From the NCBI GenBank assembly GCA_027858965.1, contig JAQIBS010000167.1:31416-95415 (forward strand): a stretch of 64,000 bases of DNA. The letters are read 5' to 3'. The translations under genes and the position numbers were made by a program. Source of the DNA: Kiritimatiellia bacterium (GTDB lineage: Bacteria; Verrucomicrobiota; Kiritimatiellia; RFP12; UBA1067). Positions 37,810 to 59,770 of the stretch are shown piece by piece. Each line of letters begins with the position of its first letter. Positions within the stretch are counted from its first letter, which is position 1. The notes beneath the pieces were generated by a model, which searched no databases, had not been told where the DNA came from, and saw only the letters and a program-made list of their open reading frames with translations.

Positions 37810-39729
37810 ATGAGTAAAGTAATCAGCAGATTATTAAGTGTTGCATTAATTGTGGCATTAACTTTTGTTTTATCATCAGAAGTTCAGGCGGCAGAACTTT
37901 TCTATAAAATTCCAGTCGGTACAACTAGCAGCTGGTTTACCGTGGAAAATTGGAACACAGCGTACAATGGCACTGGCGACAATTATCTTCCCGCACCTAC
38001 TAATGATACAACTCTTAGTGGAGGTGTATGTGTTATTGATGGTGGATCAAACGCTGAGGTAACCAGAGTAAGTAATATGGCTCGTTGGATGGGTGGCACA
38101 GGATTTACATTGGATATTGAATCAGGAGCAACTTTATCTATCAGTAATTATCTTGTCCTTGGCAACGAATTTGTGGATGCGACAATGAATGTCAGGGGAC
38201 AGCTTAATGTAATAAATGCACCAAACAATGGTTTTTCACTTGGAGGTTACAGGGCTGGATTAACAAACAATATTGGCCTTCTTAATATTGATGGTGGAAC
38301 TGTGATATATGGAACTGGTGAGGGCACATCGCCAATTATTTTGGGCGGGGCATCAACTGGTCGTGTGGAAATCACCAATGGCGGGATATTTATTAATAAT
38401 AATTCATGTAATATTGGACCTGGTGCTGATTCTCAATCAGATGGCACTGTGATCATCCAGGATGGTTCATGGACTAATTTCGGTGGTATATCTGTAGGTA
38501 ACAATGGTGGAACTGGCAGGATTATTGTAAATGGTGGCGGCGTATATTCTATGAGTATCGGAGGTCCTATGTCAGTTGGAAACGGCGGTGCAACTGGATA
38601 TTTCGAAATAAATGGCGGAGAGTTTATTGGGCGGCATGGATACAATGATATAGCTTCCAGTGCAAATCGCTCTTTGATTACTGTGGGTTCAGGAACCGGG
38701 AGTACAGGTAAATTCATTCAGAATGGCGGTGTTGTTGAAGCTGTTGGACTGTCTTTAGGAAATGGTGGTTCAGCACATGCAATCATCAGCAATGGCCTTT
38801 TCAAGGCAATGTCCAACAATGGTTCATGGCCATGTTTTTTTATATATGATGATGCTACATTGACTATTGCCGGTGGAGAATTCTCCTGCTATACGAATGG
38901 AGCAGCAAGCACTATCAGAGACGGCGGAACATTAGAATTTATCTCCGGTAAATTTACGGCTCGTTACGCCGGTGCAACACTGTACACCTATTCTAATACA
39001 ACTATCAGAGTTATTGGTCCCAAATGTGATATTGATGTTGGCTGGTGGCGACACACTTCTCCATATGATGGCAAGGGAGCGGCAAGTTCTACTTTGGAAC
39101 TTATTTTGACTCAGGATGCAGGTCATTTGAGTACATTTAAGTCTCCACGTACGGATCAAGATACGGCACTGGCAGGAACAATGGATGTTGCGTTTGATGG
39201 GGGGGCATGTCTGTTAGCAACTAACAAGCTGATTTGTATGAGAGCCGGCAGGTATCTTTCAACAACTTTTGTAGATCCTTCTAATTACGGATTAGAGCTT
39301 TGGGATACCGGCCGAACAGGAACATATGGTAATGATGAACTTTATATTACTCTCAAGGATGGTGCTTCTCTTGGAAGTGTTTCTATACCGAATGCAAAGT
39401 ATGCCAGTTTTGCACCGCAGGCTTACGGATATGTAGATGTTGAAAATCTTGATTTAGGCACACTACCTGAATTAACCGTTGAGATGACAATGACCGCTGG
39501 CGATAAGACTCTTGATCAGGTTGTGACAGATCTTCAGAGAGCGGGATACACTAACTCGGTTATGAAAGATGCAGAGACCATTGTAATGATAGTGCCAGCA
39601 GATAAGATTGTATCTACTACTGGATATTTCGCATGGGATTTCCGCGAATTTGATGGTTCGGTAAATGCAACAGTTAGCGCTGTTTCATTTCAGCCTGGTT
39701 TAAAAGGTACAATTTTATTGATTCAGTAG
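37810..39729 (+). CDS. Secreted Gly/Asn-rich beta-solenoid (passenger-like) protein with no barrel domain
   Basis: AGGAG RBS, signal peptide ending VQA; repeated VGxxGxxGxxxIxGG units; ends KGTILLIQ; visibly AT-richer than neighbours. Confidence 0.78.
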   Translation: MSKVISRLLSVALIVALTFVLSSEVQAAELFYKIPVGTTSSWFTVENWNTAYNGTGDNYLPAPTNDTTLSGGVCVIDGGSNAEVTRVSNMARWMGGTGFTLDIESGATLSISNYLVLGNEFVDATMNVRGQLNVINAPNNGFSLGGYRAGLTNNIGLLNIDGGTVIYGTGEGTSPIILGGASTGRVEITNGGIFINNNSCNIGPGADSQSDGTVIIQDGSWTNFGGISVGNNGGTGRIIVNGGGVYSMSIGGPMSVGNGGATGYFEINGGEFIGRHGYNDIASSANRSLITVGSGTGSTGKFIQNGGVVEAVGLSLGNGGSAHAIISNGLFKAMSNNGSWPCFFIYDDATLTIAGGEFSCYTNGAASTIRDGGTLEFISGKFTARYAGATLYTYSNTTIRVIGPKCDIDVGWWRHTSPYDGKGAASSTLELILTQDAGHLSTFKSPRTDQDTALAGTMDVAFDGGACLLATNKLICMRAGRYLSTTFVDPSNYGLELWDTGRTGTYGNDELYITLKDGASLGSVSIPNAKYASFAPQAYGYVDVENLDLGTLPELTVEMTMTAGDKTLDQVVTDLQRAGYTNSVMKDAETIVMIVPADKIVSTTGYFAWDFREFDGSVNATVSAVSFQPGLKGTILLIQ

Positions 39730-39740
39730 TTACGAATTAA

Positions 39741-39864
39741 GTAACTTCTCAATAATCGGTCAGAGAACTAATACACCCTAAAGGGTGAACAACAAACGGG
39801 GATTGGTACACCTGTTTGTTGTCCAGGCTTTAGCCTGTCTCAAAGCGGGTTATTGAGAAGTTAC
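39741..39864. mobile_element. 124-bp MITE
   Basis: Perfect 15-bp terminal inverted repeats gtaacttctcaataa / ttattgagaagttac; 8-bp target duplication cgaattaa at 39733-39740 and 39865-39872. Confidence 0.85.
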
Positions 39865-39876
39865 CGAATTAAGACT

Positions 39877-40815: not shown

Positions 40816-40820
40816 ATGCG

Positions 40821-40857: not shown

Positions 40858-40864
40858 TCAAACT

Positions 40865-42085: not shown

Positions 42086-43267
42086 TTATCTCTGCATCCG
42101 TCGGTTAGCTTCCGAAACCGTTTTCAACATATAGGCCCGTTGATTGTTAAATGTCACATTCCAATCTTTATTCTGACCGGAGTGATCAAAAACCCAGAGA
42201 GCGGAAAGCGGAACTTCACTTGTTTCAATAGCTGAAATCAATTGAGAGAACTTCTTTTTTTCGCCCGGTTCTCCTAAAGCCAAAGAAGCACCAAACTCAC
42301 CAATAAAAAGTGGTTTCTTTGAGTCTCCGGCGATTTTATGCACGCCATCAATCAGCTCAGGCAACGATATAAACCCACCAGGATATTTATTGTTATCACG
42401 TGGATAGATGTGAACACAGAGCATAGAAAAGGGATCAGGATTATCACGCTGCAGCACCTCGGCAAACTGATCTCGTGAATCCAGAGTCCAGCTTTTCTCT
42501 TTTGAGTTATGCCACGCATGTGGACGGGGAATAGAATTACCGGTAATTAAAATACGGTGTTTATCATAGCGACGAACAACCCTGGCAAACTCAGCATAGG
42601 CGCTCAGCATCATTTCCGCTGAAATATCATCACGTTCTGAACGGGATAAAGCGGTTTTCAACTTTGGCCAGACCTTAGGACGATGCGATGCTGCATTCGG
42701 CAGATCCACATGCAGATTATACTCATTGCCGAACTCCCAAGCCCAGATGGCAGGCGAATTTTTATAACGCAGAACAAGCTCTGCGGTATACTGCCGAATA
42801 AATGCAATCGTTCTGCTATCCTGATTACCCAGCTGATCCATGGGTTCACCAACAATATCAGGCACTGTTGCCATATTCCAGAACAGGGAGGGAATTAAGC
42901 CAATCTTATTTTTTTCAGCACAGCGCACCACATCATCAAGCTGCTTGAAGTATTTCTCTTTGTCAGTCAGATAAAGCTCCCAGTCAGAGGGCCAGAATCC
43001 ACAGGCCATAAAACGGACAAAGGGAATACCGGCCTCTGAAAGGCTCTTTAATCCCTCCTGATAAGAGCTATCAGAGTTGTCCTTTAATGTCCTGTAGAAA
43101 AGACTGAAGTAATTCACTCCCATTCCGCGGTAGGGCTTGCCTTTGAGGCAGAGCTGTCCCGCTACCAGAGTCAATCCAGCGGATGATTCAGATTGTTCCT
43201 TTGCAGCATTGCTGTATGGACAGAGAGCGAGTAATCCAAGAACAAACACATAATTCAAAATTTTCAA
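42086..43267 (-). CDS. Secreted clan GH-A (GH5-like) glycoside hydrolase
   Basis: Signal peptide; GVNY, WEFGNEY acid/base, IGEFG nucleophile. Confidence 0.82.
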   Translation of the reverse strand: MKILNYVFVLGLLALCPYSNAAKEQSESSAGLTLVAGQLCLKGKPYRGMGVNYFSLFYRTLKDNSDSSYQEGLKSLSEAGIPFVRFMACGFWPSDWELYLTDKEKYFKQLDDVVRCAEKNKIGLIPSLFWNMATVPDIVGEPMDQLGNQDSRTIAFIRQYTAELVLRYKNSPAIWAWEFGNEYNLHVDLPNAASHRPKVWPKLKTALSRSERDDISAEMMLSAYAEFARVVRRYDKHRILITGNSIPRPHAWHNSKEKSWTLDSRDQFAEVLQRDNPDPFSMLCVHIYPRDNNKYPGGFISLPELIDGVHKIAGDSKKPLFIGEFGASLALGEPGEKKKFSQLISAIETSEVPLSALWVFDHSGQNKDWNVTFNNQRAYMLKTVSEANRRMQR

Positions 43268-43587
43268 GCAACATTCTCCTCTATTGAAAGCAGAGCGAGG
43301 TAATCGCGTCTCGCATACAAGACACGGATTATAGAGACAAGGTTTTCATCCGTTCTGTAAAACACAAGATAGTTTTTGATAATCAGGAAACGATAGTTTT
43401 GAAGAGAGGAAATCTCACTCTGTATCTGTGTGCCGGTCTGCGGGAAATTCTCCAGTATATTTATTTTTTCAAAAATTTGTGTGATCTGCGTTGCGGCAGC
43501 CTGAGGGTTTAACAGATGGTCAGCTATGTAGCTTCTGATCTCTTCCATATCTGTGAGTGATTGCGGTGTAAACCGTATGTCGAACAT
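43264..43587 (-). CDS. RelE/ParE-family toxin
   Basis: IRFTPQS..D..EI..YIA..L.NPQAA..LENFP..G..YR..NYLVFYR..IIRVLY..RD; probable start 43587. Confidence 0.88.
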   Translation of the reverse strand: MFDIRFTPQSLTDMEEIRSYIADHLLNPQAAATQITQIFEKINILENFPQTGTQIQSEISSLQNYRFLIIKNYLVFYRTDENLVSIIRVLYARRDYLALLSIEENVA

Positions 43588-43588
43588 T

Positions 43589-43837
43589 TTACACTCCGAG
43601 TCTTTTCTTGGCGGAATCCATGTCAACCCAACCGCTTTCTCTAACCGATGCTTCCCCTTTAGCCAATGCTGACATTAAATCCAACTCTGAACGCAGTTTT
43701 TCATAACCGTTTAAATCCACAATAGCGTAACGGCCGTGTCCGTTCTTGGTTAGAAAAACGGGTGTTTCCGGGGTAACTTCCCGCAGCACAGTGTTATAGT
43801 TTCTCAATTCAGAGACAGGTTTTATTATAGTCGGCAT
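43589..43837 (-). CDS. Phd/YefM-family antitoxin
   Basis: IKPVSELRNY..PVFLTKNG; directly upstream of the toxin. Confidence 0.9.
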   Translation of the reverse strand: MPTIIKPVSELRNYNTVLREVTPETPVFLTKNGHGRYAIVDLNGYEKLRSELDLMSALAKGEASVRESGWVDMDSAKKRLGV

Positions 43838-44016
43838 CGTCAATTTCTCCTTAATCAACTTAAATGTAGCAGAATCTTACGAAAGAAACAACAGCAGATA
43901 TCTTTCATGGCTTTTTCCCAGTCAACGAATTCATCTTTGCCTTCGCGAACATTCAACTCCCGTTGTTTTTAAGAACTCGCCATGACACTGAGGAAAACTG
44001 ATATCCGGTGCATAAT

Positions 44017-47000
44017 TTAAGGCTTTGTTGCAACAGGCTTCACAAATGGTTCATGGGTAATCCCGATGCAGAGCTCACTCGGCTCGCTTCTATGTCCATC
44101 CTTATCCACAGCCAACACACGATAGAAATATGTTGTATGTGGCTTCAACCCTTTATCTTCGTATGGAACAGTCGCATAGGGTCCTGGCTCAACTTTTGCA
44201 ACAAATGTTTTCTCATCCAATTCAAACTCAGGGGTTTCGGCTCTGAAAAGCTCATAATGCGACAGATCAGATTCCTGATTCTGCCCCCACTGAAGATAGA
44301 GCAGATCAGATTCAACACCACGCCAGGCACGAGGATCAGAGATAAGGCCCGTATAATGAGATCCCACTTTTGCCGGGGGCGAATCGCCTTTATCGAGAGT
44401 CAGCCCTTTAATTTCCGGTGAACACTCGCCCTGATGAGTTGCGGCATCCACAGCTGCAACTCGATAGTAATACGCTGAACCGGATATTAATCCTGAATCG
44501 GTCAAACACGGCTCGCATGTTGTTGTCAGCAGATGGTAGGCATCAGCAGTAAAACCGGCCCGATCGCCTCTGTACACATTGTATTGTACGACACTCTTAA
44601 CAGGCTCCCAACGCAATGCAACCGACTCATCAGTCGCCTCAAAAAGGGTTACATTGGGCACCGAAGTCAATCCACCCTGCTCCTCCATCCGAAGCGTTGC
44701 ATAGCCAAATGGCGAAAGAGAGACCACAGAGTCTTTCAACAGATTGCCATCATGCTCTGTCACAGAACATTTGGTCAGACGCAGGTCGCGCCCCCACCCC
44801 ACTTTAACCTTCACCTTATCAAGCTCTTGACCATCATTTTCATGAAAGCGGGCAATAATGCCGGCACCGGGTCTTTCACTCAATTTAAGGGCAAGCAGAT
44901 TTACGCCGGGCTGATCGGTTGAAAGGAAACTGTGGGACGTTGAAGGCAGAGAGCCTTTCTGAGCCTGAGGAATCACTGCTGTTAAGAGGGGCGTACATAC
45001 CCGCTCTGCCAACTGCTCCACCCCTGACTCGGCAAAACTGCAGGGATGGCTGACAATCACATAGCGGTAACGCAGATTGATATGAGATGGTCCTGTGACA
45101 TAGGCATGTGAGAAAAGCCAGTCATTGAAAATGTAGGAATACAGATGTGAGCTCTCAGGTTTATCCCCAGTTGTATTCTTCTGTTTATGAATACTGCCAC
45201 ACTCAATCAGCATGCTGTCCAGCTGCACCAGCGACACCCCGAACTCACCATTCCCCACATACGACCAGTCCCGTGCGGCATGATAGGTATCCGTGCCATG
45301 GTCTGTCTGATCTTTGAGGGCATCAGCATTGCAACCATTGAGACCTACCCGGAACTTGCCCTGAGGCACATTGAAAGGAAATGCATAATAGCCGAAAGAG
45401 TTGTAGCGTTTTCCATCCGCCAGATCCATTACATGCTTAAGGCGATTATCGATATCAATGCGCTTCTCATAAGATGGAAGCGTGACGCGCTGAACAATCT
45501 CGGCTCGCGTGGCAGGATCATTAAGCGTAACTGTCACCGTTGTTTCCAAAGCAGATCTCTCCACTTCAAACATGGCCTTAGAAGGTGTCGTAAACGTTGC
45601 ATTGCAATCAGCTGAATAGACCAGCTGGTTGCAGCGATAAGGGGCCTTTGCATCAATAAGCTCACGTTCCAGCTCCTTATCAAAGATAGATGTAACAGCT
45701 CCATCCGCATCGAACATTACACGGTAGAATTTATTCTCCAGCACCGGAGGTCCCTGTACGGATTGTTTGCTGACGCTCCCGCCATCACCTTCCAAAAGAT
45801 CAAAGCGGGTATAGCCCATGGATGGGATCTCCGATGTAGCGAATCTCAGTCTGCCATCAGAGACCACCCCTGAGATTGTACTCCCCTGCGGTGTACGGAT
45901 AAGGTAATGCTCAGCAGTTACGGCTGTCAGATCAACTTCAGCAATTCCTGATCGTGGTTGAAGAGTAGGGTTGAAAACCAGAACCGCCAGCCCATCGCTA
46001 CTTACCTGTGCCGCCAGAGATTTCAATGCACGGGAACACTCTGTTTCAGCTGTTTCATGTGAGCGGGCAATCCAATCTTTTTTCTGCATCCAGGTATCAA
46101 AGACCTTTCGCCCTTTGTAACTGCTGACTCCATAGCCATGTTCATCGTTACAGATCAGAGCATCCCAGGCCAGCCGGAGAGCCAATGTGGGATACACAAA
46201 TCCGGGGTTGGTCAAGCGTGCCACCGTCGCCAGTTTTTCCGCAACCGGAAGAAGGCGGTCAACCTCACGTTTTGCTGCCAATATCGAGGGGGTGGAGACC
46301 GGATGCTGCGCCCAGCCTGCGGTAATCATACCACTCAGAACCGGAATCTGATCACCGAAGCGGGCCTCCACTGCGTGAAACGGCACAGAGAGGTCACCAA
46401 CAGTCCGAACCTCCGGCCAGCGCCAGCGGGCATTCCATTTCTTTGCAAACGTGGGTATCGACAAATTGGGAGATTCATCGTCTTTATAAAACGGAAGAAG
46501 CCAGATGTCATAGGGATACTTTTTTTCCAGTTTGGCAAACTGCCTTGCCATTTTATTTTCAGCAATGCTCTGAACCGAGTCACTGAGGCCGAATTCATAC
46601 CCACCACTGGTATAGGTAGGAGCCGTCCAGACCAGCAGACGGCTCTTTTTATCGGCACCCTGCCAGTAAAAGAGATGAGGTAGTTCAGAATCCCAGCCCA
46701 CATCAATGCGGCTGCCACCTCCATCGCCTCCTGCTCCGAAATGATCACGTGTGGCATCCTTCCCCCAACCCAGAACCGCCTTTGTAATACCCGGGTTCCA
46801 TGCATTTGCAAAAAACCCGGCATATTTGATTCCGGCATCCGCATATGCCGTTACCAATGGCCAGGTCAACCCGTTATTATCGACCATCATCATGGTATCC
46901 ATAGGAAGGTTCCAACGATCCCTTGCCTGCTGAACACAATAGGTGCTGCGGCACAGCTCCTCTGTGCTATACACCTCTGTACGATTACCTGAATGAGAGG

Positions 47001-47625: not shown

Positions 47626-47716
47626 TTCTGCTTTTAAAGATTGTAGCTCCTAGTTTGCTTTGCTACCAACTACCAGCTAAACTCCTGCATCCTAACGGGA
47701 TGCTAGCAACTCTTTT

Positions 47717-48643
47717 TCATGGTCCTTGCCAATTTTTTTTCACATCAGGCAGACCTCTCAATTTACGCCAGACACCCGGTGCGGAACCCGTGCGACGCTT
47801 AAAAAACCTGGTGAAATAGAAAACCGAAGAAAATCCCGTTTCCGATGCAATCTGAGTGATCGTCATATCGGTCTGCTGTAACAAAGCCTTGGCGCGGTTA
47901 ACTCTGATTTCAAGCATATAGGCATGCGGCGCATAACCGGTCTCCTCCTTGAACGCTTTACGAAACGCCGAATATCCCATTCCAACCACCTCACAGATGC
48001 GTTGCATCTCAACCTCTTCAAAGGCATGCTCTGAGAGCCAGTTGCGGGCCAGAGCAATTTTCGACAGACTGGCCTGTTCCCGAAGTGGTGCTTTTTTTCT
48101 AACAAAGAGCACCAGCCGGGATATGAGAGTAATAATATCCGCGGCCAGCAGCGGTGCGGCATCAGAAGATGCCTCTTTATACCTTTTGACAATGCCCTGC
48201 ATGAGCCGATTGATCTGCGGAGTTGCAGCACCCCGCAGAACAGGAGAGTGCGGTAAAAAGAATGCATGCATCAGATGTTTGGCATAGTCTCCGTCAAATC
48301 CCACCCAACACTCATTCCAGCCGCAATCGTAGTCGGGCCTAAACCGGTGCCACTCCCCTGGGAATAAAACAAAAATATCACCCGTTTCCAACTCCAGGAG
48401 TCCGGCCGATGCGGTTTCAATCGAACCACGACCATGCGTCACAGCTAAAAACTGATACTCTGAGAAAATCCGTCCCCGCTCCCATGTAAACAGATAGGAG
48501 TCCGGGTGATGTTGAGGCGGATACTCCGTTTTAGGAGGAATGACCGTATACCCCACATCAATTGCACGCACCCCCCAAACCCGCGCATTCTTATCCGGGG
48601 GGTGATACAGTGCGAGGTATCGCTTCAATCCCAACTTTTTCAT
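47717..48643 (-). CDS. AraC-family transcriptional regulator
   Basis: Cupin LFPGEWHRF; C-terminal double HTH IASETGFSSVFYFTRFFK; probable start 48643. Confidence 0.92.
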   Translation of the reverse strand: MKKLGLKRYLALYHPPDKNARVWGVRAIDVGYTVIPPKTEYPPQHHPDSYLFTWERGRIFSEYQFLAVTHGRGSIETASAGLLELETGDIFVLFPGEWHRFRPDYDCGWNECWVGFDGDYAKHLMHAFFLPHSPVLRGAATPQINRLMQGIVKRYKEASSDAAPLLAADIITLISRLVLFVRKKAPLREQASLSKIALARNWLSEHAFEEVEMQRICEVVGMGYSAFRKAFKEETGYAPHAYMLEIRVNRAKALLQQTDMTITQIASETGFSSVFYFTRFFKRRTGSAPGVWRKLRGLPDVKKNWQGP

Positions 48644-48797
48644 GGATAAAAGTATAAATAGACCAACCACATAAGGCGACAATAAAAATCAAAAAGTGCA
48701 AAATAAATATCAAAGCGTGTATGGTGTTTTAATAGAAAACATGGTTAAATAAAGATAATTCAAACAGTGGCTATGAAACAAATGACAGGATGTTAAA

Positions 48798-51700
48798 ATG
48801 AAAAAAAATAATGAATCCAACGTGTATAGGTGTAAATTGCGTGTTTTGACGGCAATCACTCTGATATCGTCCTTCACCGGGCTGCTGCCAGCAGAAGCCG
48901 GCGTACCGGTCGGGCAGTCAACGCTCATTGACACGCCGGATTACAGCGACACCTTTACCGTCAATACGGCCAGCCGGCCCGGGATTTCCTACTACAAGAA
49001 CCCGGATGCCATAGATCCCTACTACAACGTCGAAAGCGGAACACCCACCGTGCAGTGGCACCCGACCCAGAACTTCAGCTTCAATACCGATGCAAATGTC
49101 GAAGCGCCATATCCGGGCAATACCGGCAACACCGGTGCTGCCACCGGCATGGCCCAGACCGGCGGCTTCAACGCCAACTTCGCTTACGGCGTGCGGGACA
49201 CCTTTGTTGTCCAGATGGATGCAACTTTCGTGGGAACAGATCATATTAAGCTCGGCACCTACGCCAGCGTAGGCGATCAGAGCGGAGCGGCCGGCAGTCT
49301 GGTCGCCTATTTCCGACGCGGGACAATCGGTCTGGTCTCCATTGTCGAGACGTCAACCGGCATTAGCACCGGAATTGATGCTGCCGACACCTCCTGGCAC
49401 AATCTTGCGGTCGAATTCAACAAAGCCGACAATACCGTCTCTTTCTTCGTTGATGAAGTGCTGAAAGGCACCCTTGACCTGACAACCTTTGCGGGCGGAG
49501 CCTACCTCAACTACTCCAACGGCGCTGTCGGCGCGGGAGTAAGCGGATATGTGGGCTGGTTCGACAATTTCCAGGTCGGCAAGCCGAAGGGGTTTGTCGA
49601 CGGCACTCTGATAAATGGTCACCGTACCGAGCAAACAAGCGTGAGCGGTAACGATTCGATCACAACACTGGTTGATGCCGGCCGGCTGATCAAGCAGGGC
49701 GCAGGTACCCTGAGCATCACCAATGCCCACATATATAATGGCACCATAGAGGTCGCGGATGGCACACTGGACATTGGAACCGGCACAAGCGATCTTCCTT
49801 CAGCTCTGAGATCCGGCCTTGCTTTCTGGGTGGATGCCAACCGCAATGTCGAAGTCAACGGCGGTGAAGTGACCTGCTGGTATGATGTGCGTGAAGATTC
49901 CGGCGGCGTGACCTATCCCATGGCGCGCCGGTTTGTGTCAACCAATGCGGTCGTCGACCCAGGCCCGACATGGGTGCAGGGCGGCGATGACGTATCCGGC
50001 CTCAAGCTCGTTGATTTCGGTGCCTATGGCAGCGGAAAGTGGCTGCAGTGGCAGGATGCGGAAAGCAACCGTCTGAGCATCGCGAATATCCGCACGGTCT
50101 TCATGGTCGTCTCCTGCACCAACGGCTACGGCTTCCTGCTGGGAGACTGGGATGACGCCATCGCGAACACCAACGCCGGCACCGGCGACTTCCACACGGG
50201 CGGCAACACAGGAGACGGCAATCCGGCAGGTGTGGCGCTTAAGGGGGCCAGCTGGTGGAACGGAAGCGCCTCTCCCTATGTGTACAGGGGGCAGACCTTC
50301 ATTAATGGAGATTACGTGAATGGTGTGGGACAGACGGTATCCTCCATCGGCGAGCTGATGTCGTTGGCGGCGACCGGCAACACACAGGCTTCGAACTTCG
50401 GCAACAACCGCAACTTCAAGGCGAGCGACGGTCTCCCGGGCGTCAATATCGACCGACAGGGCGGCGGACGGATCGGCGAGGTTTTGATCTACTCATCGGC
50501 GCTAACGATCAGCCAGCGACTCCAGATTGAGTCGTACCTGATGAAAAAATGGTTTGGCCAGGGTCTCGGCTCACTCCGTATAGACGAAGGCGCGGTAGCG
50601 ACACTGCATGCCGACGGCACAAACAACCTGTCAAACGCAACCATCTCCGGTATCGGCACACTGAATATGCAAGGATCCGGCACCCTGCAGGTCTCTGATA
50701 TGGCCGATCCCCTCCTTCCGCCGGTACGCCTCAACGCAGGTGCGGGTATTGACAGCGGCACCCTGTACCAGCGGACAGACCAGCCCTATATGCTGGAAGG
50801 CGGTTCCCTCTACAGCGTCTCCAACGGTCTCTCCTCACGGCAGTCATTGGAGGACGGAACTCGCATTGAAAAAAGCGGTGACGGCGTGCTGACCGCCGCG
50901 TCAATCGAAGCCGGCGTCCAGCGAGTGGAGGTCAAAGCCGGCACCCTGCGTCTGGCCCCTCCGCTGCCCGGCACGGCTGCTTTAACCAATGCTCTGGAAA
51001 ACGCCAGTTTCGAAACCTTCACATCTGTGGGCACAGGCGGAGACGCCAACTGGGGCTACACCCCCACGGGCACAGGCTGGACCATCACAGAAGACCTCTC
51101 CTCCGGCAACTCATTAGAATGGTCCGGAGCAGGACTGGCTAGATGCTCAGCAGGCACACCCTGGTGTGCAGCCCAAATCGCACCTGAAGGCGACTGGTGC
51201 ATCTTCCTGAAACGTGCCGGGGAAATTAAACGCACTTTTGAAGTGCCGGTTTCCGGCCGCTATGAGATCTCTTTCTACACCTCCGCCCGACCAAACTGGA
51301 ACAACCATCTCTACCAGGTTCTGGTCGACACGACCAATGTCATCGGAAGTGTACGAACCAAAAAAACAACGTTCGGACTTATTACCTGCACCACGCCCCC
51401 ACTTTCAGCCGGCACCCATACGCTCTGCTTCAAGGGAATTTATGGGACCAGCGACGGGGCATCAAATATTGATGCCATCGAAATCAAGCTGTTCAACGGA
51501 ATGGATTATGTGAAAGTTCCTAACGCTGACTTCGAAGAACCGGATGTCCCTGTTGTAAATCTTGCAGGGAACGATTACTATTTTGCATACAACCCCTCCG
51601 GTGCGAGCTGGAATTTTATTCCCGCCCCGGCAGTCACCAACAGCGGCATCACAAGCGGCAACAATGTCTGGTACTACACCCAGATGAAAAATGGCGGTCA

Positions 51701-52739
51701 AGCGGCATTTTTGCGCCAGACAGGAGGGATGTCCACCTCGATCACCTTCCCGACAACAGGGGTCTACCGGCTTTCGTTTCGAGCCGCCGCACGGGTTGGA
51801 GACTGGGGAGATCTTTTCAGCTGGTACAACGGTCATGACTTGGAGATCTCGCTTGGCGGCACGCTGACAGCCCGCATGACAACGTGGAAGCCGGATTTCG
51901 AAACGGTCTCATACGTCCTGCCGGTCATCGAAGAGGGGGATCCGCTGACGCAGACCCTGACCTTCACCGGTTTGAACTCCGCAGGGGGCGACCGGGCAAC
52001 GCTCATCGACGAAGTCAGCATCTGTCGCATGCCTACCTTTGCCAACCCAGGTTTTGAAAGCTCCGCCACGCTGGCAAACGGGACCTGGGAGGCTGGCATC
52101 GAGAATGCGGGATGGTCGTTCGATCTCGGAGCGGGAGCAACGAGCCAAAGCGGCATTGCACAGACCGGTTCTGATTGGGGCAACACCGCGCCGGACGGGG
52201 GATGCAATGCCTTCCTGCAGATGATCGCCCAAATCAGTCAGACAATCACATTTGATGAGGCCGGCACCTATGAAATCTCTTTTCTAGCCGCAGGCCGGCC
52301 TCAGAACCAAAATTATCTGAACCACGACTTCCAGGTAACCTTCGACGGCATGAAAGTGGGGTATGTCCGCACAGTGGACGGCACCTTTCGCCGGTACACG
52401 TTCCGTCTACCCTTCGTGAAAGCGAATGTTCCTTACGTTCTGGCCTTCGAGGGCATCAACCACGGCGACACCACGGACCGCGCCTCCTTTATTGACTCAG
52501 TTATACTCACAAAAATCGAGGAACCCACATTCGATCCCGCCGCCTTTGCCAAAACTGAAATCGCCCTCTCGGCTGGAACCACATTGGAGCTCGACTACGA
52601 TGGTCTCCTCACAATGGAACGCATCATCTACAGCGGACGTTCATACTCCGGCATGATGACAGCCGAAAACACACCCTTTATTCAAGGCACCGGATCGCTC
52701 TATGCAACCCCTCAAGGAACTATAATCATTCTACAATAA
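48798..52739 (+). CDS. Large secreted non-catalytic multidomain protein (LamG-like, autotransporter-associated repeats, three CBM-like domains)
   Basis: Signal peptide ending AEA; KQGAGTL and KSGDGVL repeats; GEVLIYSSAL..YLMKKW; three NxxFE..IDxV modules; ends QGTIIILQ. Confidence 0.75.
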   Translation: MKKNNESNVYRCKLRVLTAITLISSFTGLLPAEAGVPVGQSTLIDTPDYSDTFTVNTASRPGISYYKNPDAIDPYYNVESGTPTVQWHPTQNFSFNTDANVEAPYPGNTGNTGAATGMAQTGGFNANFAYGVRDTFVVQMDATFVGTDHIKLGTYASVGDQSGAAGSLVAYFRRGTIGLVSIVETSTGISTGIDAADTSWHNLAVEFNKADNTVSFFVDEVLKGTLDLTTFAGGAYLNYSNGAVGAGVSGYVGWFDNFQVGKPKGFVDGTLINGHRTEQTSVSGNDSITTLVDAGRLIKQGAGTLSITNAHIYNGTIEVADGTLDIGTGTSDLPSALRSGLAFWVDANRNVEVNGGEVTCWYDVREDSGGVTYPMARRFVSTNAVVDPGPTWVQGGDDVSGLKLVDFGAYGSGKWLQWQDAESNRLSIANIRTVFMVVSCTNGYGFLLGDWDDAIANTNAGTGDFHTGGNTGDGNPAGVALKGASWWNGSASPYVYRGQTFINGDYVNGVGQTVSSIGELMSLAATGNTQASNFGNNRNFKASDGLPGVNIDRQGGGRIGEVLIYSSALTISQRLQIESYLMKKWFGQGLGSLRIDEGAVATLHADGTNNLSNATISGIGTLNMQGSGTLQVSDMADPLLPPVRLNAGAGIDSGTLYQRTDQPYMLEGGSLYSVSNGLSSRQSLEDGTRIEKSGDGVLTAASIEAGVQRVEVKAGTLRLAPPLPGTAALTNALENASFETFTSVGTGGDANWGYTPTGTGWTITEDLSSGNSLEWSGAGLARCSAGTPWCAAQIAPEGDWCIFLKRAGEIKRTFEVPVSGRYEISFYTSARPNWNNHLYQVLVDTTNVIGSVRTKKTTFGLITCTTPPLSAGTHTLCFKGIYGTSDGASNIDAIEIKLFNGMDYVKVPNADFEEPDVPVVNLAGNDYYFAYNPSGASWNFIPAPAVTNSGITSGNNVWYYTQMKNGGQAAFLRQTGGMSTSITFPTTGVYRLSFRAAARVGDWGDLFSWYNGHDLEISLGGTLTARMTTWKPDFETVSYVLPVIEEGDPLTQTLTFTGLNSAGGDRATLIDEVSICRMPTFANPGFESSATLANGTWEAGIENAGWSFDLGAGATSQSGIAQTGSDWGNTAPDGGCNAFLQMIAQISQTITFDEAGTYEISFLAAGRPQNQNYLNHDFQVTFDGMKVGYVRTVDGTFRRYTFRLPFVKANVPYVLAFEGINHGDTTDRASFIDSVILTKIEEPTFDPAAFAKTEIALSAGTTLELDYDGLLTMERIIYSGRSYSGMMTAENTPFIQGTGSLYATPQGTIIILQ

Positions 52740-52768
52740 AGTAACAACGTTAAAACTTACGTATGCCG

Positions 52769-52799
52769 CAAGCTGTCTGACTCTCAGTCAGAGAGCTTG
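52769..52799 (+). terminator. Stem-loop, possible terminator or processing site
   Basis: caagctgtctgact-ctc-agtcagagagcttg followed by tttatt. Confidence 0.55.
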
Positions 52800-52870
52800 T
52801 TTATTACTCGATGACATATCTGATAACTGACCTATAACCCGATTAACTCTAAATACTTTCACGACTAATA

Positions 52871-55186
52871 ATGAAAACTTCGCTCCTCAGTTTATTTGCA
52901 CTTCTGATCACTCTCCCATTTACAGCAATAGCTCAGACGGCTTTTCAAGGTGCGCAATGGTTACGCGATCCACGCTTTAAGAACGAACCGACACTGGGCA
53001 TCTTCGACGTGCATCGCAAGAAGAGCCAAGAAGCCCGGCTTAAAAACATTCACACCTATTTTCGCAAATCATTCAATCTGCAGACACTCCCGCAACGGGC
53101 TGTCCTGCGATTTACGGCGGACGACTATGCAAAGCTGTATATCAACGGAACTTTTGTCATTCAGGGACCTGAACCCGCCTATCCTTTTGCTCATCCATAC
53201 TATGATGTCGATGTAACAAAATATCTGTGCACCGGTGAAAACGTACTGGCGGCGCACACCTACTATCACGGTTTAGCAACACGAGCGTTCAACTCTGCTG
53301 ACAACCGCAGCGGTTTGATTGCGCAACTAGTCTTAACCACAGAGGGCCTTCCTGAACAACGCATTGTAACTGACAAATCATGGCGCTGTTTCGCCTCCCG
53401 GACATTCTCTTCTGACAAGGTGTTTGGTTATGAAACGCAGTTTAATGAGAATATGGATCTTAATCTTGAACCGATCAACTGGCGAAAGCCAGGCTTTGCT
53501 GACACCACATGGAGCGCACCATTAACCGGCTTTCAGGATCACACTTTTATCGCTGCAATCACAGCCCCGCTGCAACACACAAACGCCTTTCCCATCGCTT
53601 TAAAGCAGACAGAGACAAATCGCTGGTTCGCAGATATGGGCACCGAAGTAGTTGGCCACACGCGCATTCGTGTCAAGGGATACCCCGGCCAGATCATCAC
53701 AGTCTGGCACGGAGAAGAACTCTCAGCACCCAATGTTGTCCGTCATAAAATGCGCTGTAACTGCGATTATGTCGATCAGATCACTTTGACTGAAGGTAAC
53801 AACCTGATCGAGTTTTTCGACTACCGCGCCTTTCGTTACGTCGAAATAATTGGAACAACCAATACGCCCGACATTCAGGTGGATGTCCGACACTATCCTT
53901 TTGAATGGACAGCCAGTAGCTGCCAATCGTCCGATACAGCTCTGAACAGGATCTGGGAAATATCCAAACGCGGAGTACAGATGGGCAGTCAGGGCATATT
54001 CGTCGACTGCCCCTCACGGGAGAAGGGGCAATATACCGGCGACACCTACATGACAGTTCTCTCACAGCTCCTTCTGACTGGTGATCCGTCTCTAACCCGC
54101 AAGGCACTTATTGATTTCCAACAGACCCAACGGTTTGATCCCGGCATGTTATGTGTGGCACCCGGCGGATTCTGGCAGGAGTTGGCGGAGTGGTCTTTGC
54201 TGTGGCCGCAGATGGTTGTTTATTACTATCGAGTGACAGGAGACAAAGCCCTCGTTAAAACCTTAGTTGAAGCGGGTGCGACTGAAAAACTGATGAGGTA
54301 TTTCTCAAAACTGGAACGTGAAGACGGCCTGTTGAGTGGAGTGGACCGGCACAAGTGGGTTCTGGTCGATTGGCCCTCCAACCTGCGGGGCGGCTACGAC
54401 TACGACAAAACTAAAAACGGTGTGAATACTGTGATCAACGCCTTCTATTATGGATCTTTGCTAGCCGTTGCAGAGATGATGCGTATTGCTGACCGTCCTG
54501 ATCTGGAATACACCAACAAAGCCGAACGACTCGAAAAAGCCTTTAACAAATCTTTGCTGGACCCAGCCAGCGGCTTGTATATTGACGGCATCCATGAAGA
54601 TGATACCCGTTCATCGAAAACAAGCCTCCATGCAAACGGGTTTCCGCTCTATTTCGGATTGGTGCCCGAAACAAATCAAACAGCGGTTGTCAACTTGATC
54701 CGGCAGCAACGTCTCAACTGCGGAATCTACGGTGGACCTTATTTTATTGCCGCCCTGTTTAAGAACGGCCACTCCGACCTCGCCTACGATCTGCTGACCA
54801 GCAAAGATACCCACTCATGGAACCAGATGCTCAAAGAGGGAGCAACGACCACATTCGAAGCATGGGGCGCAGATCAGAAGTGGAATACAAGCCTCTGTCA
54901 CCCGGCAGCAGGAATGCCGGTCTGGATTATCATCGAACATCTGATGGGACTGACACCTGCTGAACCGGGTTTCAAAACAGTGCGGGTTGCGCCGCGTATC
55001 CCCGCTGCCCTCACCTCCATTGAAGTCAGATTTCCGACCGTGTCCGGCACCATCTCGGCCCTCTATAAAAAGGACAAAGGCTATTTTTTATCCGTTCCTG
55101 AAAACACCCCTGTCATCGACGATACCCCACAGCACATTAAGTTAAAACTCGTTAATACCCTCCCGCCTGAAGAAAGTGTAAAATAG
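52871..55186 (+). CDS. GH78 alpha-L-rhamnosidase-family protein
   Basis: Signal peptide; TADD, FRYVE, DCPSREKGQYTGD, GATTTFEAW, SLCHP. Confidence 0.88.
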   Translation: MKTSLLSLFALLITLPFTAIAQTAFQGAQWLRDPRFKNEPTLGIFDVHRKKSQEARLKNIHTYFRKSFNLQTLPQRAVLRFTADDYAKLYINGTFVIQGPEPAYPFAHPYYDVDVTKYLCTGENVLAAHTYYHGLATRAFNSADNRSGLIAQLVLTTEGLPEQRIVTDKSWRCFASRTFSSDKVFGYETQFNENMDLNLEPINWRKPGFADTTWSAPLTGFQDHTFIAAITAPLQHTNAFPIALKQTETNRWFADMGTEVVGHTRIRVKGYPGQIITVWHGEELSAPNVVRHKMRCNCDYVDQITLTEGNNLIEFFDYRAFRYVEIIGTTNTPDIQVDVRHYPFEWTASSCQSSDTALNRIWEISKRGVQMGSQGIFVDCPSREKGQYTGDTYMTVLSQLLLTGDPSLTRKALIDFQQTQRFDPGMLCVAPGGFWQELAEWSLLWPQMVVYYYRVTGDKALVKTLVEAGATEKLMRYFSKLEREDGLLSGVDRHKWVLVDWPSNLRGGYDYDKTKNGVNTVINAFYYGSLLAVAEMMRIADRPDLEYTNKAERLEKAFNKSLLDPASGLYIDGIHEDDTRSSKTSLHANGFPLYFGLVPETNQTAVVNLIRQQRLNCGIYGGPYFIAALFKNGHSDLAYDLLTSKDTHSWNQMLKEGATTTFEAWGADQKWNTSLCHPAAGMPVWIIIEHLMGLTPAEPGFKTVRVAPRIPAALTSIEVRFPTVSGTISALYKKDKGYFLSVPENTPVIDDTPQHIKLKLVNTLPPEESVK

Positions 55187-55258
55187 ACAACCTCATTTAA
55201 TTCTTTACCCACCTTATCGAATCCGAATTCAGAATTTTATTCAAACCGAAAGGCATTC

Positions 55259-58200
55259 ATGATCTCATTCAAATCATCCTATTCCCTGCTTCTCCTATTT
55301 TTTATGCTCATTTCAATCGCTAATGGCCTGAGTGTTGATAATCTGCGTTGCGAGTATCTTGAAAATCCCATCGGTATTGATATTGCATCACCCCGTCTCT
55401 CATGGATACTGCAGTCGAACGAACGCGGACAGAGGCAGACCGCCTATCAGGTGATCGTGTCCAGCACACCGGAGTTACTGGCTACGGAACAGGGCGATCT
55501 GTGGGACAGCGGCAAAGTTGTCTCTGATCGGACTCTTCATATTGTCTATGCCGGTTCTGCTCTGACAGCCCGGCAGCAGTGTCACTGGAAAGTCCGCACA
55601 TGGGACAAAAACAACCAGCCCTCGCCCTGGAGTCCCCCAGCGAGATGGAGTATGGGTCTGCTGCAGCTCTCCGACTGGGGTGGCGCAGACTGGATCGCCT
55701 TCACCTCCCCTACGGCAACATCCAACGCCCACAACGGCTATCACTGCATCATGACAAACACCGCCGATGTTTCCAAATGGGTAGCCGTTGATCTGGGTAC
55801 CGCACAGTCAGTCGAGGCTGTACGCCTCCACCCCACCCGTCCTTACGACTGGCCAACGGATACCCCCGGATTTCTCTTCCCCGTCCGCTTCAAAATTGAA
55901 ACTGCGCTGAATGCCGATTTCTCTGATGCCGTCACCGTGGTTGACCAGACAGCCGCCGATGTACCCAATCCCGGTACCAACGCACCACTCTATGCCTTTA
56001 CAGCACGCTCAGCCCGGTACATACGTCTGAACGTCACCAGATTGGCTCTGCGCGATCCCGGCAACTACGCCTTCACCCTGGCCGAACTGCAAACCCTCTC
56101 GGGTGGCACCAATGTGGCGCAGGGTGCCGCGGTCTCAGCACTCGACAGCATCGAATTGGGTGGCTGGTCAAAAACAAAACTGACCGACGGACGCCTGCTG
56201 CCCGACCCAGGGACGCCTGTTGCGAGCCCACCGGCCACCATGCTGCGTAAGGAGTTTACACTGAGCAGTCCCGCAAAACGTGCGGTCGTATCAGTCACAG
56301 GACTCGGCCTTTACGAGCTGTGGATCAACGGGCAGCGGGTCGGCGACCACCTGCTGGCTCCCGAGTGGACCTGCTACAAAAAACGGATTCAGTACCAGAC
56401 ATATGATGTCACATCACTCCTGCAGGAGGGTGCTAATGTTATCGGGGCCCAACTCTGCGGTGGCTGGTGGTCCGGTCCCCTTATGACCATGCCCGCGGTA
56501 ACAGCACCTCAATACTGCCTGTTGCTTCGGATGGACACTGAACTGAACGATGACACAACGCAAACCCTTGTAAGTGATGGTTCGTGGCAGGCGACCGATG
56601 CAGGTCCGATCCGCCGTTCGGAGATCTATTACGGTGAAATCTATGATGCCACCAAAGAGCAACCGGGATGGAACCAGACCGGATTTGACGCCACTGGCTG
56701 GATTCCGACCGTTACCCTGACAGCCCCAGCAGGATCAGAAAACACACCGCTCGTGGCACAGCCAAGTGAACCCATCCGTGTCACAGAGGAGCTGACACCT
56801 GTAAACATCACTCAACCCACACCCGGCACCTATGTCTTTGATATGGGACAGAACATGGTCGGCTGGTGCCGGTTGCATACGGATGCCCCCGCCGGTACGC
56901 AGATCTCCATGCGCTTCGGCGAGGCACTGAACGAGGATGGCACCGTCTATCTGGCCAACCTCCGAGGAGCAACCCAAGTCAATACCTACACCTGGCGGGG
57001 CGGAGAGGCCACACTCGAACCGCATTTTACCTATTTCGGCTTCCGTTACGTTCAGGTCACGGGACTGACCACACCGCCGAACACTGGCACCCTGCTCGGC
57101 CGGGTCTTTCACTCCAGCGCTCCGGAAACAGGAACCTTCTCCAGCTCCAATGAACTGCTCAATTCCATCATGCGCTGCGTCGACTGGGTTCAACGTGCTA
57201 ATATGCACAGCGCCCCCACCGACTGTCCTCAGCGGGATGAACGACTAGGCTGGATGGGGGATATTCTCTCTTTCTCACAGACCGCCATCTTCAACCGGAA
57301 CATGGCCGGATTCTTCACCAAGTGGATTCCTGATATTCGCGATTCGCAGGCCGATGACGGACGTTATCCGGATTTTGCACCGCATCTCGGCGATCCCAAT
57401 GGTAATTTCAACAGTGTCCCCGGATGGGGCGATGCCGGCACTGTTGTGCCATGGCGCATGTATCAGAACTATGCTGATACCCGCATTCTGGAACAGCACT
57501 TCGATTCAGCTAAACGATGGGTAGATTTCATCCATAACGCCAACCCCAACCTCCTCTGGCAGAACAGCCGCGGCAATGACTATAACGACTGGCTCAACGG
57601 CGATACGCTTATTCTTGACGGTTACCCACGCGGCATCAGTGAAATTCCAAAGGAGATATTCGCCACCGCCTTCTTTGCTCGCTCAACCGAGATCGTGGCA
57701 AAAATGGCCAAGACTCTGGGACGCACCGAGGATGCCGCCACCTATACTACTCTTCACAACTCAATCAAAGCCGCATTCAACGCCGCTTACGTCACACCGG
57801 AAGGCCGCATCAACGGCGAAACACAGGCTGGCTATGCGCTGGCGCTGAACTTCAATCTGCTTGACCCCAATCTGCGGCCTCAAGCCGCAAGTCACCTGCT
57901 GGAGTCCATTGCCGCCTACAAGTCCCATCCCTCAACCGGCATCCACGCAACCCACCGCATGCTGTTGGAGCTCTCTGCCAACGGACAGCACGAAGAGGCC
58001 TGCCGCCTCGTCAATCTCCGTACCGTCCCCTCCTGGGGTTATATGATTGATATGGGGGCGACAACCATCTGGGAACGATGGGACGGCTATGTTGAAGGAC
58101 GCGGCTTTCAGAACCCCGGCATGAACTCGATGAACCACTGGGCCTTCGGTTCAGTCGGCGAATGGGTCTGGCGGACACTGGTCGGCATCAATCCCGATGA

Positions 58201-59770
58201 GTCGCAGCCGGGTTTCAAACACATCATCTTTCATCCGCGTCCCGGCGGTGGCCTCACCTGGGCCAAAGGCCGCTACGAATCCATCCGCGGACCGATCGTC
58301 AGCGAGTGGGCCATCCAGGCCAACACCCTCTCGATGCACATCGAAATCCCGCCCAATACATCTGCAACCGTTTTTATTCCCACCGCGAATGCCGCTGCCA
58401 TTACCGAAGGCGGCACATCGGCTGCCCAAACTAGCGGACTGACATTCCTGCGTATGGAGGAGGAGTGCGCTGTTTATGAGGCTGAACCGGGCAGCTACTC
58501 CTTTGAAGGGCCCGCCCCGGCAACCAGCGCAGCGGACCGTACCGAGGTTCATGTATCCAATCCGGGCTTTGAAATACCGACCGAACTGGCGACCTCAACA
58601 AACGACTCCTACTATGAGTACAATCCGTCCGGAGCAGGCTGGACCTTTATTGATAATCCGGCGGTCACCAACAGCGGAATCACGGAAGGTAACGGGGTCT
58701 GGTACTACACCCACATGGCTGAAGGGAACCATGCCGCCTTCCTGCGCCAGACAGGTCAGGTGTCAACACCGGTCACCTTTCCGGCGGCAGGTGTCTACCG
58801 TCTGACCTTTCAGAGTGCCGCACGCGTAGCCGACTGGGGGATTTCATTCCAATGGTACAACGGCCATGATTTCGATATCCAGCTCAACGGCAGGCAGGTT
58901 GCCCGTCTGCAGACATGGGATGCCAAATTTGCAAAACGTTCGTTTGTTCTGCCAGTCATTAAGGAGGGAGATCCGCTGACCCAGACGCTGAGCTTCACGG
59001 GAGTGAACTCACAGGGCGATGACAGGACCTCACTCATCGATGATATCGGCATCACCCGGATGCCGACTTTCGGCAATCCCGGTTTCGAAAGCGATGCAAC
59101 CCTGGCAAACGGCACATGGGAGGCGGGTATCACAAATGCTGGCTGGGAATTTTGTGCAGGTGAAAATCAAACCTCCCAAAGCGGCATTGCCCTAGCGGAT
59201 TCCGACTGGGGCAATACCGTTCCGGAAGGACTCTCCTGCGCCTTTCTGCAGATGACAGCCACCATCCGACAGACGATCACCTTCGAGACCGGCGGAACCT
59301 ACGCGCTTTCATTTCTCACCGCTGCCCGCAGTCAACAGAGCCGATACATGAACCACGATTTCAATGTACTCTTCAACGGTATGGTCGTGGGATATGTCCG
59401 CACTGCCGAAGCCGCATACCGGCGTTACTCCTTCAGACTGCCGCTGGTCAAAGCGGGAGTCCCTTATGTCCTCTCCTTTGAAGGCATCAACCAGGGTGAT
59501 GCCACTGACCGCGCCTCGTTTCTCGACTCAGTCATGATTGTCAAAACAGATGATCCCGCTTTCGACCCTGCCGCCTTTGCTAAAACATCTCTGAATCTGT
59601 CGCCCGGAACCATGCTGGAACTGGACTACGACGGTCTGCTCAGGATGGACCAAATCGCTTATGACGGGCACTCATTGACCGGTCTGCTGAACGCGGACAA
59701 CACACCTTTCATTCAAGGATCCGGTTACATCTATGCCGCTGTCGTAGGGACTTTGATCAACGTTCAGTAA
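55259..59770 (+). CDS. GH78 alpha-L-rhamnosidase with inserted discoidin-like domain and C-terminal CBM-like cassette
   Basis: LRCEY..PRLSW, DCPQRDERLGWMGD, GATTIWERW, NSMNH; VDLG..ARYIRL insert; ends VGTLINVQ. Confidence 0.92.
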   Translation: MISFKSSYSLLLLFFMLISIANGLSVDNLRCEYLENPIGIDIASPRLSWILQSNERGQRQTAYQVIVSSTPELLATEQGDLWDSGKVVSDRTLHIVYAGSALTARQQCHWKVRTWDKNNQPSPWSPPARWSMGLLQLSDWGGADWIAFTSPTATSNAHNGYHCIMTNTADVSKWVAVDLGTAQSVEAVRLHPTRPYDWPTDTPGFLFPVRFKIETALNADFSDAVTVVDQTAADVPNPGTNAPLYAFTARSARYIRLNVTRLALRDPGNYAFTLAELQTLSGGTNVAQGAAVSALDSIELGGWSKTKLTDGRLLPDPGTPVASPPATMLRKEFTLSSPAKRAVVSVTGLGLYELWINGQRVGDHLLAPEWTCYKKRIQYQTYDVTSLLQEGANVIGAQLCGGWWSGPLMTMPAVTAPQYCLLLRMDTELNDDTTQTLVSDGSWQATDAGPIRRSEIYYGEIYDATKEQPGWNQTGFDATGWIPTVTLTAPAGSENTPLVAQPSEPIRVTEELTPVNITQPTPGTYVFDMGQNMVGWCRLHTDAPAGTQISMRFGEALNEDGTVYLANLRGATQVNTYTWRGGEATLEPHFTYFGFRYVQVTGLTTPPNTGTLLGRVFHSSAPETGTFSSSNELLNSIMRCVDWVQRANMHSAPTDCPQRDERLGWMGDILSFSQTAIFNRNMAGFFTKWIPDIRDSQADDGRYPDFAPHLGDPNGNFNSVPGWGDAGTVVPWRMYQNYADTRILEQHFDSAKRWVDFIHNANPNLLWQNSRGNDYNDWLNGDTLILDGYPRGISEIPKEIFATAFFARSTEIVAKMAKTLGRTEDAATYTTLHNSIKAAFNAAYVTPEGRINGETQAGYALALNFNLLDPNLRPQAASHLLESIAAYKSHPSTGIHATHRMLLELSANGQHEEACRLVNLRTVPSWGYMIDMGATTIWERWDGYVEGRGFQNPGMNSMNHWAFGSVGEWVWRTLVGINPDESQPGFKHIIFHPRPGGGLTWAKGRYESIRGPIVSEWAIQANTLSMHIEIPPNTSATVFIPTANAAAITEGGTSAAQTSGLTFLRMEEECAVYEAEPGSYSFEGPAPATSAADRTEVHVSNPGFEIPTELATSTNDSYYEYNPSGAGWTFIDNPAVTNSGITEGNGVWYYTHMAEGNHAAFLRQTGQVSTPVTFPAAGVYRLTFQSAARVADWGISFQWYNGHDFDIQLNGRQVARLQTWDAKFAKRSFVLPVIKEGDPLTQTLSFTGVNSQGDDRTSLIDDIGITRMPTFGNPGFESDATLANGTWEAGITNAGWEFCAGENQTSQSGIALADSDWGNTVPEGLSCAFLQMTATIRQTITFETGGTYALSFLTAARSQQSRYMNHDFNVLFNGMVVGYVRTAEAAYRRYSFRLPLVKAGVPYVLSFEGINQGDATDRASFLDSVMIVKTDDPAFDPAAFAKTSLNLSPGTMLELDYDGLLRMDQIAYDGHSLTGLLNADNTPFIQGSGYIYAAVVGTLINVQ

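Follow-up and report, generated by a model that had tools for sequence, protein, structure and literature searches.

Several described systems carry the information for sorting an exported protein at its C-terminus. The type A C-terminal domain (CTD; PF18962) of the type IX secretion system (T9SS), a folded unit of about 70-80 amino acids (aa) that is found in Bacteroidota and ends in a β-strand, labels proteins for passage through the outer membrane after Sec export, and the β-signal of the β-barrel assembly machinery (BAM) has as its consensus a terminal amphipathic strand with a glycine and two alternating hydrophobic residues. PEP-CTERM, LPXTG, GlyGly-CTERM and MYXO-CTERM are suffixes with numerous copies in a genome, borne by signal-peptide proteins whose bodies are unrelated and exchanged in homologues; for tripartite signals of this kind, excerpts of Haft's work give a list of criteria (10.1101/2023.06.07.544157; PMC3237569). 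In type II secretion systems (T2SS), extracts of published reports assign targeting information to the Fn3 domain of PelI/Pel3 (PMC7949064) and to the Ig domain of VesB (PMC12369372). Here we describe a seven-residue C-terminal tail found on three proteins of a 64,000-nucleotide stretch of a Kiritimatiellia genome (contig JAQIBS010000167.1, positions 31,416 to 95,415; hereafter the window) and on many other proteins of the same genome (G000; 5.9 Mb in 256 contigs, 91.8% complete). This C-terminal suffix is real, NCBIfam (searched with three whole carriers and 29 C-terminal 40-mers) and Pfam hold no model for it, and we found nothing relevant to it in the open-access literature; we regard it as very probable that it is a functional sorting signal of some kind. 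The carriers in the window and their tails are as follows.

37810..39729, + strand: tail-bearing protein of 639 aa with a signal peptide and Gly-rich repeats; no Pfam family
39706..39729, + strand: tail 1, G-T-I-L-L-I-Q-stop (protein end ...PGLKGTILLIQ)
48798..52739, + strand: tail-bearing signal-peptide protein of 1313 aa with a passenger-associated repeat (aa 297-327), DUF642-like modules and a small terminal β domain; barrel absent
51510..52739, + strand: 409-aa C-terminal module, including the tail, with 64% identity to 58547-59770
52716..52739, + strand: tail 2, G-T-I-I-I-L-Q-stop (protein end ...ATPQGTIIILQ), unpacked in the structural model (aa 126-130 of the modelled piece, pLDDT <50)
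55259..59770, + strand: GH78 alpha-L-rhamnosidase of 1503 aa, fused to the shared 409-aa module and tail
59747..59770, + strand: tail 3, G-T-L-I-N-V-Q-stop (protein end ...AAVVGTLINVQ)

The three open reading frames (ORFs), their coordinates, C-termini and signal-peptide-like N-termini are as a preliminary description of the window gave them, and so is the count of two independent instances of the tail: BLAST of ORF 37810 against ORFs 48798 and 55259 returns no match at E<=1, while the latter two have the 409-aa module in common. The same description assigned passenger-like repeats to two of the proteins; by HMM one is matched on ORF 48798 alone (TIGR02601/PF12951), ORF 37810 being blank in Pfam and ORF 55259 a GH78 enzyme with appended modules. 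It also held that the expected anchors are missing, and neither an autotransporter barrel nor a PEP-CTERM tail was matched on any of the three proteins by the Pfam and NCBIfam models; PF18962 and TIGR04183 likewise gave no match on these proteins or on the 29 C-terminal 40-mers. Eight homologues of ORF 37810 were found, and all six that were fetched (39-75% identity) terminate in a variant of the tail.

To quantify the tail across G000, genes were called by a longest-ORF rule rather than by a trained predictor. Among the 3,917 genes encoding 100 aa or more, the regular expression first proposed for the motif has 108 matches where the internal match rate predicts 0.13, and it matches none of 4,400 shadow ORFs. 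An iterated profile raises the number of carriers to 168 against 0.22 expected, with about ten more variants scoring below its cut-off. The consensus is G-T-[LVI]-I-[LIM]-[IVL]-[RQHK]-stop, with G in 167, T in 150 and I in 142 of the 168 tails, and the last residue is R in 68, Q in 38, H in 17, K in 13, Y in 12, N in 9 and L in 6. The G-T-hydrophobic-Q motif originally reported is real and yet too narrow, as Arg outnumbers Gln at the end and the Thr is replaceable. The position is fixed relative to the stop codon: the Gly stands at -7 in 148 proteins and at any other offset within the last 40 residues in at most one; Pro is enriched at -10 and -9. All four Gly, four Thr, three Ile and three stop codons occur in the tails, and because synonymous codons vary so freely, the constraint acts on the protein and not on a DNA repeat. 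Carriers are long (median 789 aa vs 323), account for 8.6% of the coding residues of G000, reach 3,207 aa and include multi-domain enzymes.

The carriers are exported proteins with unrelated bodies. Our own heuristic, which is positive on 14% of shadow ORFs (173 of 1,226), finds a signal peptide in 126 of the 162 carriers whose 5' end is complete; among other genes the figure is 1,447 of 4,015. Inspected by eye, many of the remaining 36 are fragments that follow an overlapping ORF, are close to the end of a contig or start further downstream. Only one of 1,650 cytoplasmic-like proteins bears a tail, and this is a fragment behind an overlapping signal-peptide ORF. The domains that precede the tail fall into 75 clusters, those annotated being passenger repeats, LamG, DUF2341 and glycoside hydrolases, and the genes neighbouring tails are glycan enzymes and regulators. 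The T+S+G+N fraction is 0.373 in tail carriers and 0.335 in a second group of proteins with a C-terminal domain resembling fibronectin type III (FN3-like; see below), against 0.247 in other signal-peptide proteins, and 140 of the 165 signal-peptide proteins with a fraction of at least 0.32 bear one or other suffix. Over the aligned GH78 region the tailed ORF 55259 exceeds all six compared tail-less paralogues in T/S/G/N, and K/E/R over the aligned region is lower in 11 of 17 carriers than in their tail-less paralogues. Composition sets the carriers apart from ordinary signal-peptide proteins, and we infer that they act outside the cell.

In homologues, the tail is exchanged for known sorting signals. 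Among 120 listed homologues of one 791-aa carrier, most of which have only the passenger repeat in common with it, our script classed 41 as ending in PEP-CTERM, 12 in the tail, 7 in F or W and 60 otherwise; Pfam places a T9SS CTD on two (P0019 and P0080) and an autotransporter barrel on five, and by eye a further nine end in tail variants and about 13 in the FN3-like domain. P0086 and P0116 align with the carrier as far as residues 786-788, so that the PEP-CTERM begins where the tail begins. With many copies in a genome, exported carriers whose bodies are unrelated, and replacement by known signals in homologues, the tail behaves as a lineage-specific C-terminal sorting suffix, which supports the original suggestion of a sorting signal.

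In a survey of 301 genomes of the phylum, a strict form of the tail is in excess over a reversed control solely in its own class; it matches in all 12 genomes of its own family (1 to 32 each), 48 times in genome G007 and 30 times in G269, while genomes of other classes have 0 to 4 matches and their reversed controls 0 to 5. Variants were harder to count, as loose DNA patterns are too noisy for the purpose. One family (f3) is without the strict form, and in it six long ORFs end in G-Y-R-L-R-L-R and kin. The ending G-x-x-hydrophobic-x-hydrophobic-[RKQH] is found on 129 of 150 proteins distantly related to the terminal module of the window. One of the profiles used in the analysis contained the tail itself, which biases its matches towards carriers. 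Within these 129 tails, the signature is less invariant than in G000, with Thr at -6 in 77, I in 60, a residue without a hydroxyl group at -6 in 45, and a polar residue at -3 common. In genome G245, six adjacent large genes (L015:119-17681) have degenerate tails (for example ...LTLLIN, ...TAILLY and ...GTIFMLR), which suggests that the signal tolerates loss of the Gly.

Comparison with the described systems sets the tail apart from each of them. It agrees with criteria 1, 2, 6, 7 and 8 of Haft's list, in the form in which the excerpts give it, and departs from criteria 4 and 5, the transmembrane (TM) helix and the basic cluster. Residues 4-8 of PEP-CTERM resemble the G-T-hydrophobic run; the tail has only seven residues, however, without Pro-Glu-Pro or a TM helix, ends in a single basic or polar residue rather than a cluster of two to five basic ones, and lacks the strict co-occurrence of PEP-CTERM with exosortase. 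It shares with the T9SS CTD its C-terminal place and the probable role of a label for outer-membrane passage but has no domain, the FN3-like suffix being the closer analogue in size. Like the BAM β-signal, it reads as an amphipathic strand at the very end that contains a Gly and a pair of alternating hydrophobic residues, yet no barrel precedes it and an extra, usually basic, last residue replaces the terminal aromatic.

These features are consistent with a terminal β-strand, as first proposed for the motif. In an AlphaFold model built from a ten-sequence alignment, the domain before tail 2 is predicted with pLDDT 86-94 and the tail is unpacked, below 50. The residues offer one hydrophobic face, with -4 and -2 invariantly hydrophobic, Gly at -7 and Arg, Gln or Lys last. 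A run of at most five hydrophobic residues, which alternate with Arg in family f3, is too short for a TM helix, and F or W is last in only 3 of the 168 tails; both points had been anticipated from the window. Gly-Thr self-cleavage is known from FecR-type proteins; as a general mechanism here it was rejected, given the non-hydroxyl residue at -6 in 45 of 129 tails. The tail behaves as a free β-strand, not as a membrane anchor or self-cleavage site; an anchor is disfavoured because the tail drifts to G-Y-R-L-R-L-R in f3 and persists in a family (f7) with no detected exosortase.

Sixty other proteins of G000 end in a domain of about 70 aa, and none of them is also tailed. One of these lies in the window:

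29532..32273, + strand: 913-aa signal-peptide protein (choice-of-anchor Q, β-helix) whose final ~70 aa form the FN3-like C-terminal domain (...AFFKLKAILK-stop)

This domain finishes with F-[YF]-[RK]-[VLI]-x-[VAL], 7-12 residues before the stop. Neither Pfam nor NCBIfam has a model for it, the best Pfam rows being EF-hand, on an upstream Asp-Gly motif, and a weak fn3, and the Atlas places it in unnamed Verrucomicrobiota clusters. Its structural model (pLDDT 83) matches FN3 domains with modest Z-scores of up to 7.2, and the matched ranges repeatedly end about 15-20 residues short of the end of the FN3 chain (2-75 of 90 in 7jgu; 3-78 of 96 in 3mpc). In the strand nomenclature of FN3, the second suffix is predicted to be the fold minus strand G, leaving an open edge, and it is a candidate sorting domain in its own right. 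Counted as the best 17 scored candidates per genome, with a profile that includes the upstream Asp-Gly repeat, it occurs in 91 of 100 genomes of the class, most abundantly in tail-less families; outside the class, 47 of 201 genomes have it. Genome by genome, the number of tails falls as that of FN3-like domains rises (rho -0.37 over 85 genomes, a set without the training genome G000 and without 14 f3 genomes, in which the variant is missed by the strict pattern). We find no support for an origin of the G000 tail in the domain's final strand, against which its profile scores -5.6 in register; the f3 variant alone peaks on that strand (+0.6). Two paralogues in G000, which we take to be ice-binding-like, end in a circularly permuted form of the domain (C226:24304-25263 and 27664-28623).

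The preliminary description suggested that a dedicated export or attachment machine recognises the motif. No candidate for such a machine emerged from neighbouring genes, Omp85 counts or class-wide secretion genes. Among the loci listed, no gene is common to 20 loci around tails in nine genomes with few copies, and no conserved accessory gene stands beside the T2SS operon in 80 loci. The number of secretins was discarded as a discriminator, as they are present in 80 of 80 genomes, and a giant GspK-like protein encoded on contig C165 was dropped as a candidate specific reader, since 57 of 80 genomes have it, tail-negative ones among them. Models for TpsB (PF03865) and Slam (PF04575) gave no matches, and neither did that for SprA (PF14349) in G000, though the controls were equally blank. 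The autotransporter barrel PF03797 was not found in G000, and four of five other tail genomes likewise showed no such barrel.

A complete canonical T2SS is encoded in G000 by an operon on contig C46 with the gene order E-F-G-H-I-J-K-L-M-D (L024:6854-19345, - strand), which is conserved in relatives and whose genes were named from Pfam matches in some cases and from sequence and order in others. The search for GspC in G000 came up empty, and in relatives gspM adjoins gspD with no conserved gene between them. GspK (PF21687) is present in 100 of 100 genomes of the class; in other classes it accompanies the FN3-like domain in 46 of 47 genomes and occurs in 74 of the 154 that lack this domain. Profiling for co-occurring T2SS-like genes, as had been proposed, does not single out the tail: the secretion genes accompany it but occur across the whole class. 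On grounds of elimination and of compatibility, the T2SS appears to be the most economical route.

From these observations we suggest the following pathway. Carriers would be exported by Sec with an ordinary signal peptide, as the heuristic calls indicate, after which the tail is predicted to hang free beyond the last domain, exposing one hydrophobic face. A periplasmic receptor may then pair with it by β-strand addition, and the folded protein would cross the outer membrane through the GspD secretin, a step suggested by elimination and co-occurrence. The 60 proteins with the FN3-like domain probably leave in the same way, in which case the two suffixes would be alternative labels. A precedent for strand addition at a secretin is found in excerpts on E. 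coli, where GspC attaches to the secretin's N0 domain by β-strand augmentation (PMC3169554). That the canonical T2SS reads the tail is possible, and we favour it tentatively on the sequence evidence. A more far-reaching form of the proposal we consider rather unlikely: that Verrucomicrobiota label T2SS substrates many-to-one, by a portable FN3-like domain with an open edge, spread over Kiritimatiellia and several further families, and, in one branch, by an equivalent seven-residue peptide, a transferable linear signal that would engage a GspC-less secretin directly by β-strand addition and send about 230 proteins of a single cell, giant passengers included, outward. The Fn3 domain of PelI/Pel3 and the Ig domain of VesB are, like the FN3-like suffix, small β-sandwich modules with a role in T2SS targeting; as far as the extracts describe them, their signals are composite loops on one substrate each (PMC7949064, PMC12369372), whereas here a linear suffix and a portable domain are common to about 230 proteins.

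Several observations weigh against T2SS recognition of the tail. The system is class-wide and present in 74 of 154 genomes without either suffix, and related genomes are not independent, so that co-occurrence speaks for compatibility and not for dedication; according to the excerpted VesB report, a universal linear signal does not exist for the T2SS (PMC12369372). This genome has five secretins in all, four besides the GspD of the T2SS, and two more pseudopilin clusters, and the carriers might take any of these instead. The inverse relation between the suffixes does not reach significance when families are the unit (rho -0.28, p 0.15, 28 families); the G000 tail is unlike the last strand of the FN3-like domain (-5.6) and resembles residues 4-10 of PEP-CTERM (+3.8), and the permuted domains show that this strand need not be terminal. 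K/E/R is not lower in 6 of 17 carriers than in tail-less paralogues. Finally, a simple export route does not explain the tail on two anti-sigma-like proteins with an inner-membrane anchor, and the tiny carriers described below are left unexplained. The further pseudopilin clusters (L025:1593-18109, + strand; L026:3468-13028, - strand) end in giant GspK/PilX-like proteins of 1,253 and 1,021 aa, the second with relatives in 57 of 80 class genomes.

The alternative that survives best, although we judge it unlikely, is an attachment tag: exit would be independent of the tail, and the free strand would afterwards dock into a surface scaffold or receptor, as in donor-strand pairing, to hold enzymes and lectins. 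The tail does occupy the place of PEP-CTERM, an anchoring signal, in homologues, tiny carriers of 63-125 aa would fit such a role, and the FN3-like domain, predicted without strand G, could accept a strand at its open edge. That domain is a poor match for the acceptor, however, being rare in tail-rich small genomes and frequent in tail-negative families, and a stand-alone acceptor, FN3-like without its last strand, was not found in G000 except in one broken ORF. Moreover, homologues also swap the tail for pure translocation signals, the T9SS CTD and the barrel.

A shortened PEP-CTERM-like processing site, at which a protease or transpeptidase would cut near Gly-Thr and attach a lipid or glycan anchor, appears improbable. 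The profile of the G000 tail peaks on the PEP-CTERM positions [SG]-[TS]-[LA]-[AL]-L-L, the upstream Pro enrichment would suit such a site, and G000 has two exosortases for only about seven PEP-CTERM proteins. The missing TM helix and basic cluster argue against it, as do the Arg-rich f3 variant, which cannot enter a membrane, and the variability at -6. Furthermore, tails occur where no exosortase was found: PF09721 was not detected in any of the five f7 genomes (G003, G173, G182, G221 and G272; 92-100% complete), the only family of the class searched without a detected one and one with few FN3-like domains too, yet G221 has five tail proteins and G003 a small one. Rhombosortase (TIGR03902) was above cut-off in none of five tail genomes, ordinary rhomboids scoring below it. 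Beside the subject of exosortases, we note repeated pairs of unassigned genes directly before a stand-alone exosortase (L029:1044-8389, + strand).

Distinctly improbable, too, is a β-signal mimic by which BamA or an unrecognised barrel would thread barrel-less passengers outward. The ending G-x-x-hydrophobic-x-hydrophobic is the β-signal consensus plus one residue, 62 of 81 proteins matching a passenger-repeat-like expression are tailed while none has the FN3-like domain, and every one of the 54 genomes searched has BamA, with one in G000. However, the tail has no terminal aromatic, and the barrel-like proteins of G000 itself end in normal Phe/Trp signals; most tail genomes are without a dedicated Omp85 paralogue, 21 of 25 genomes of the order having a single match, and the multi-domain enzymes and the longest carriers are hard to reconcile with such threading. 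Least of all do we credit a structural capping strand, or a decayed remnant, that plays no part in sorting, a highly improbable reading despite the many β-rich carriers and the travel of the tail with duplicated C-terminal modules, given 75 preceding domain groups, a fixed distance to the stop, conservation in orthologues at 39-75% identity and the unpacked state in the model.

Two groups of carriers stand out among the rest. Anti-sigma-like proteins, named from their sequence, have an N-terminal domain and a TM helix, lie behind an ECF-sigma-like gene and end a large outer part in the tail (L031:4458-5621, - strand; L032:8649-12803, - strand; L016:6730-10047, + strand); they are possible surface sensors. 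Tiny tailed signal-peptide proteins of 63-90 aa are encoded at L031:523-792 (- strand), L008 ~9860-10050 (+ strand) and L018 ~9795-10035 (+ strand), the first two having Gly-Gly-Ser-x-Asp-Gly-Tyr repeats in common despite belonging to distant families; homologues longer than the 90-aa carrier were looked for and not found.

In the window itself, positions 42086-59770 form a glycan locus; it includes an AraC-like regulator and a pair of GH78 rhamnosidases, of which one is tailed and the other tail-less. Its remaining features are:

47717..48682, - strand: AraC-like regulator, named from sequence alone, divergent from the tail-bearing glycan locus
52871..55186, + strand: GH78 rhamnosidase with a signal peptide and no tail, an internal control

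The two rhamnosidases are a candidate natural outside/inside pair.

To our knowledge, substrate selection by the T2SS has been debated for a long time, the prevailing view being that a linear signal does not exist. For these bacteria of rumen, gut and digester, the tail and the FN3-like domain would predict which of the lectins and glycan-degrading enzymes work extracellularly, and a seven-residue tag is small enough to be grafted or deleted in one experiment. The tail also suggests how passenger-like proteins may leave the cell where an autotransporter barrel is not found.

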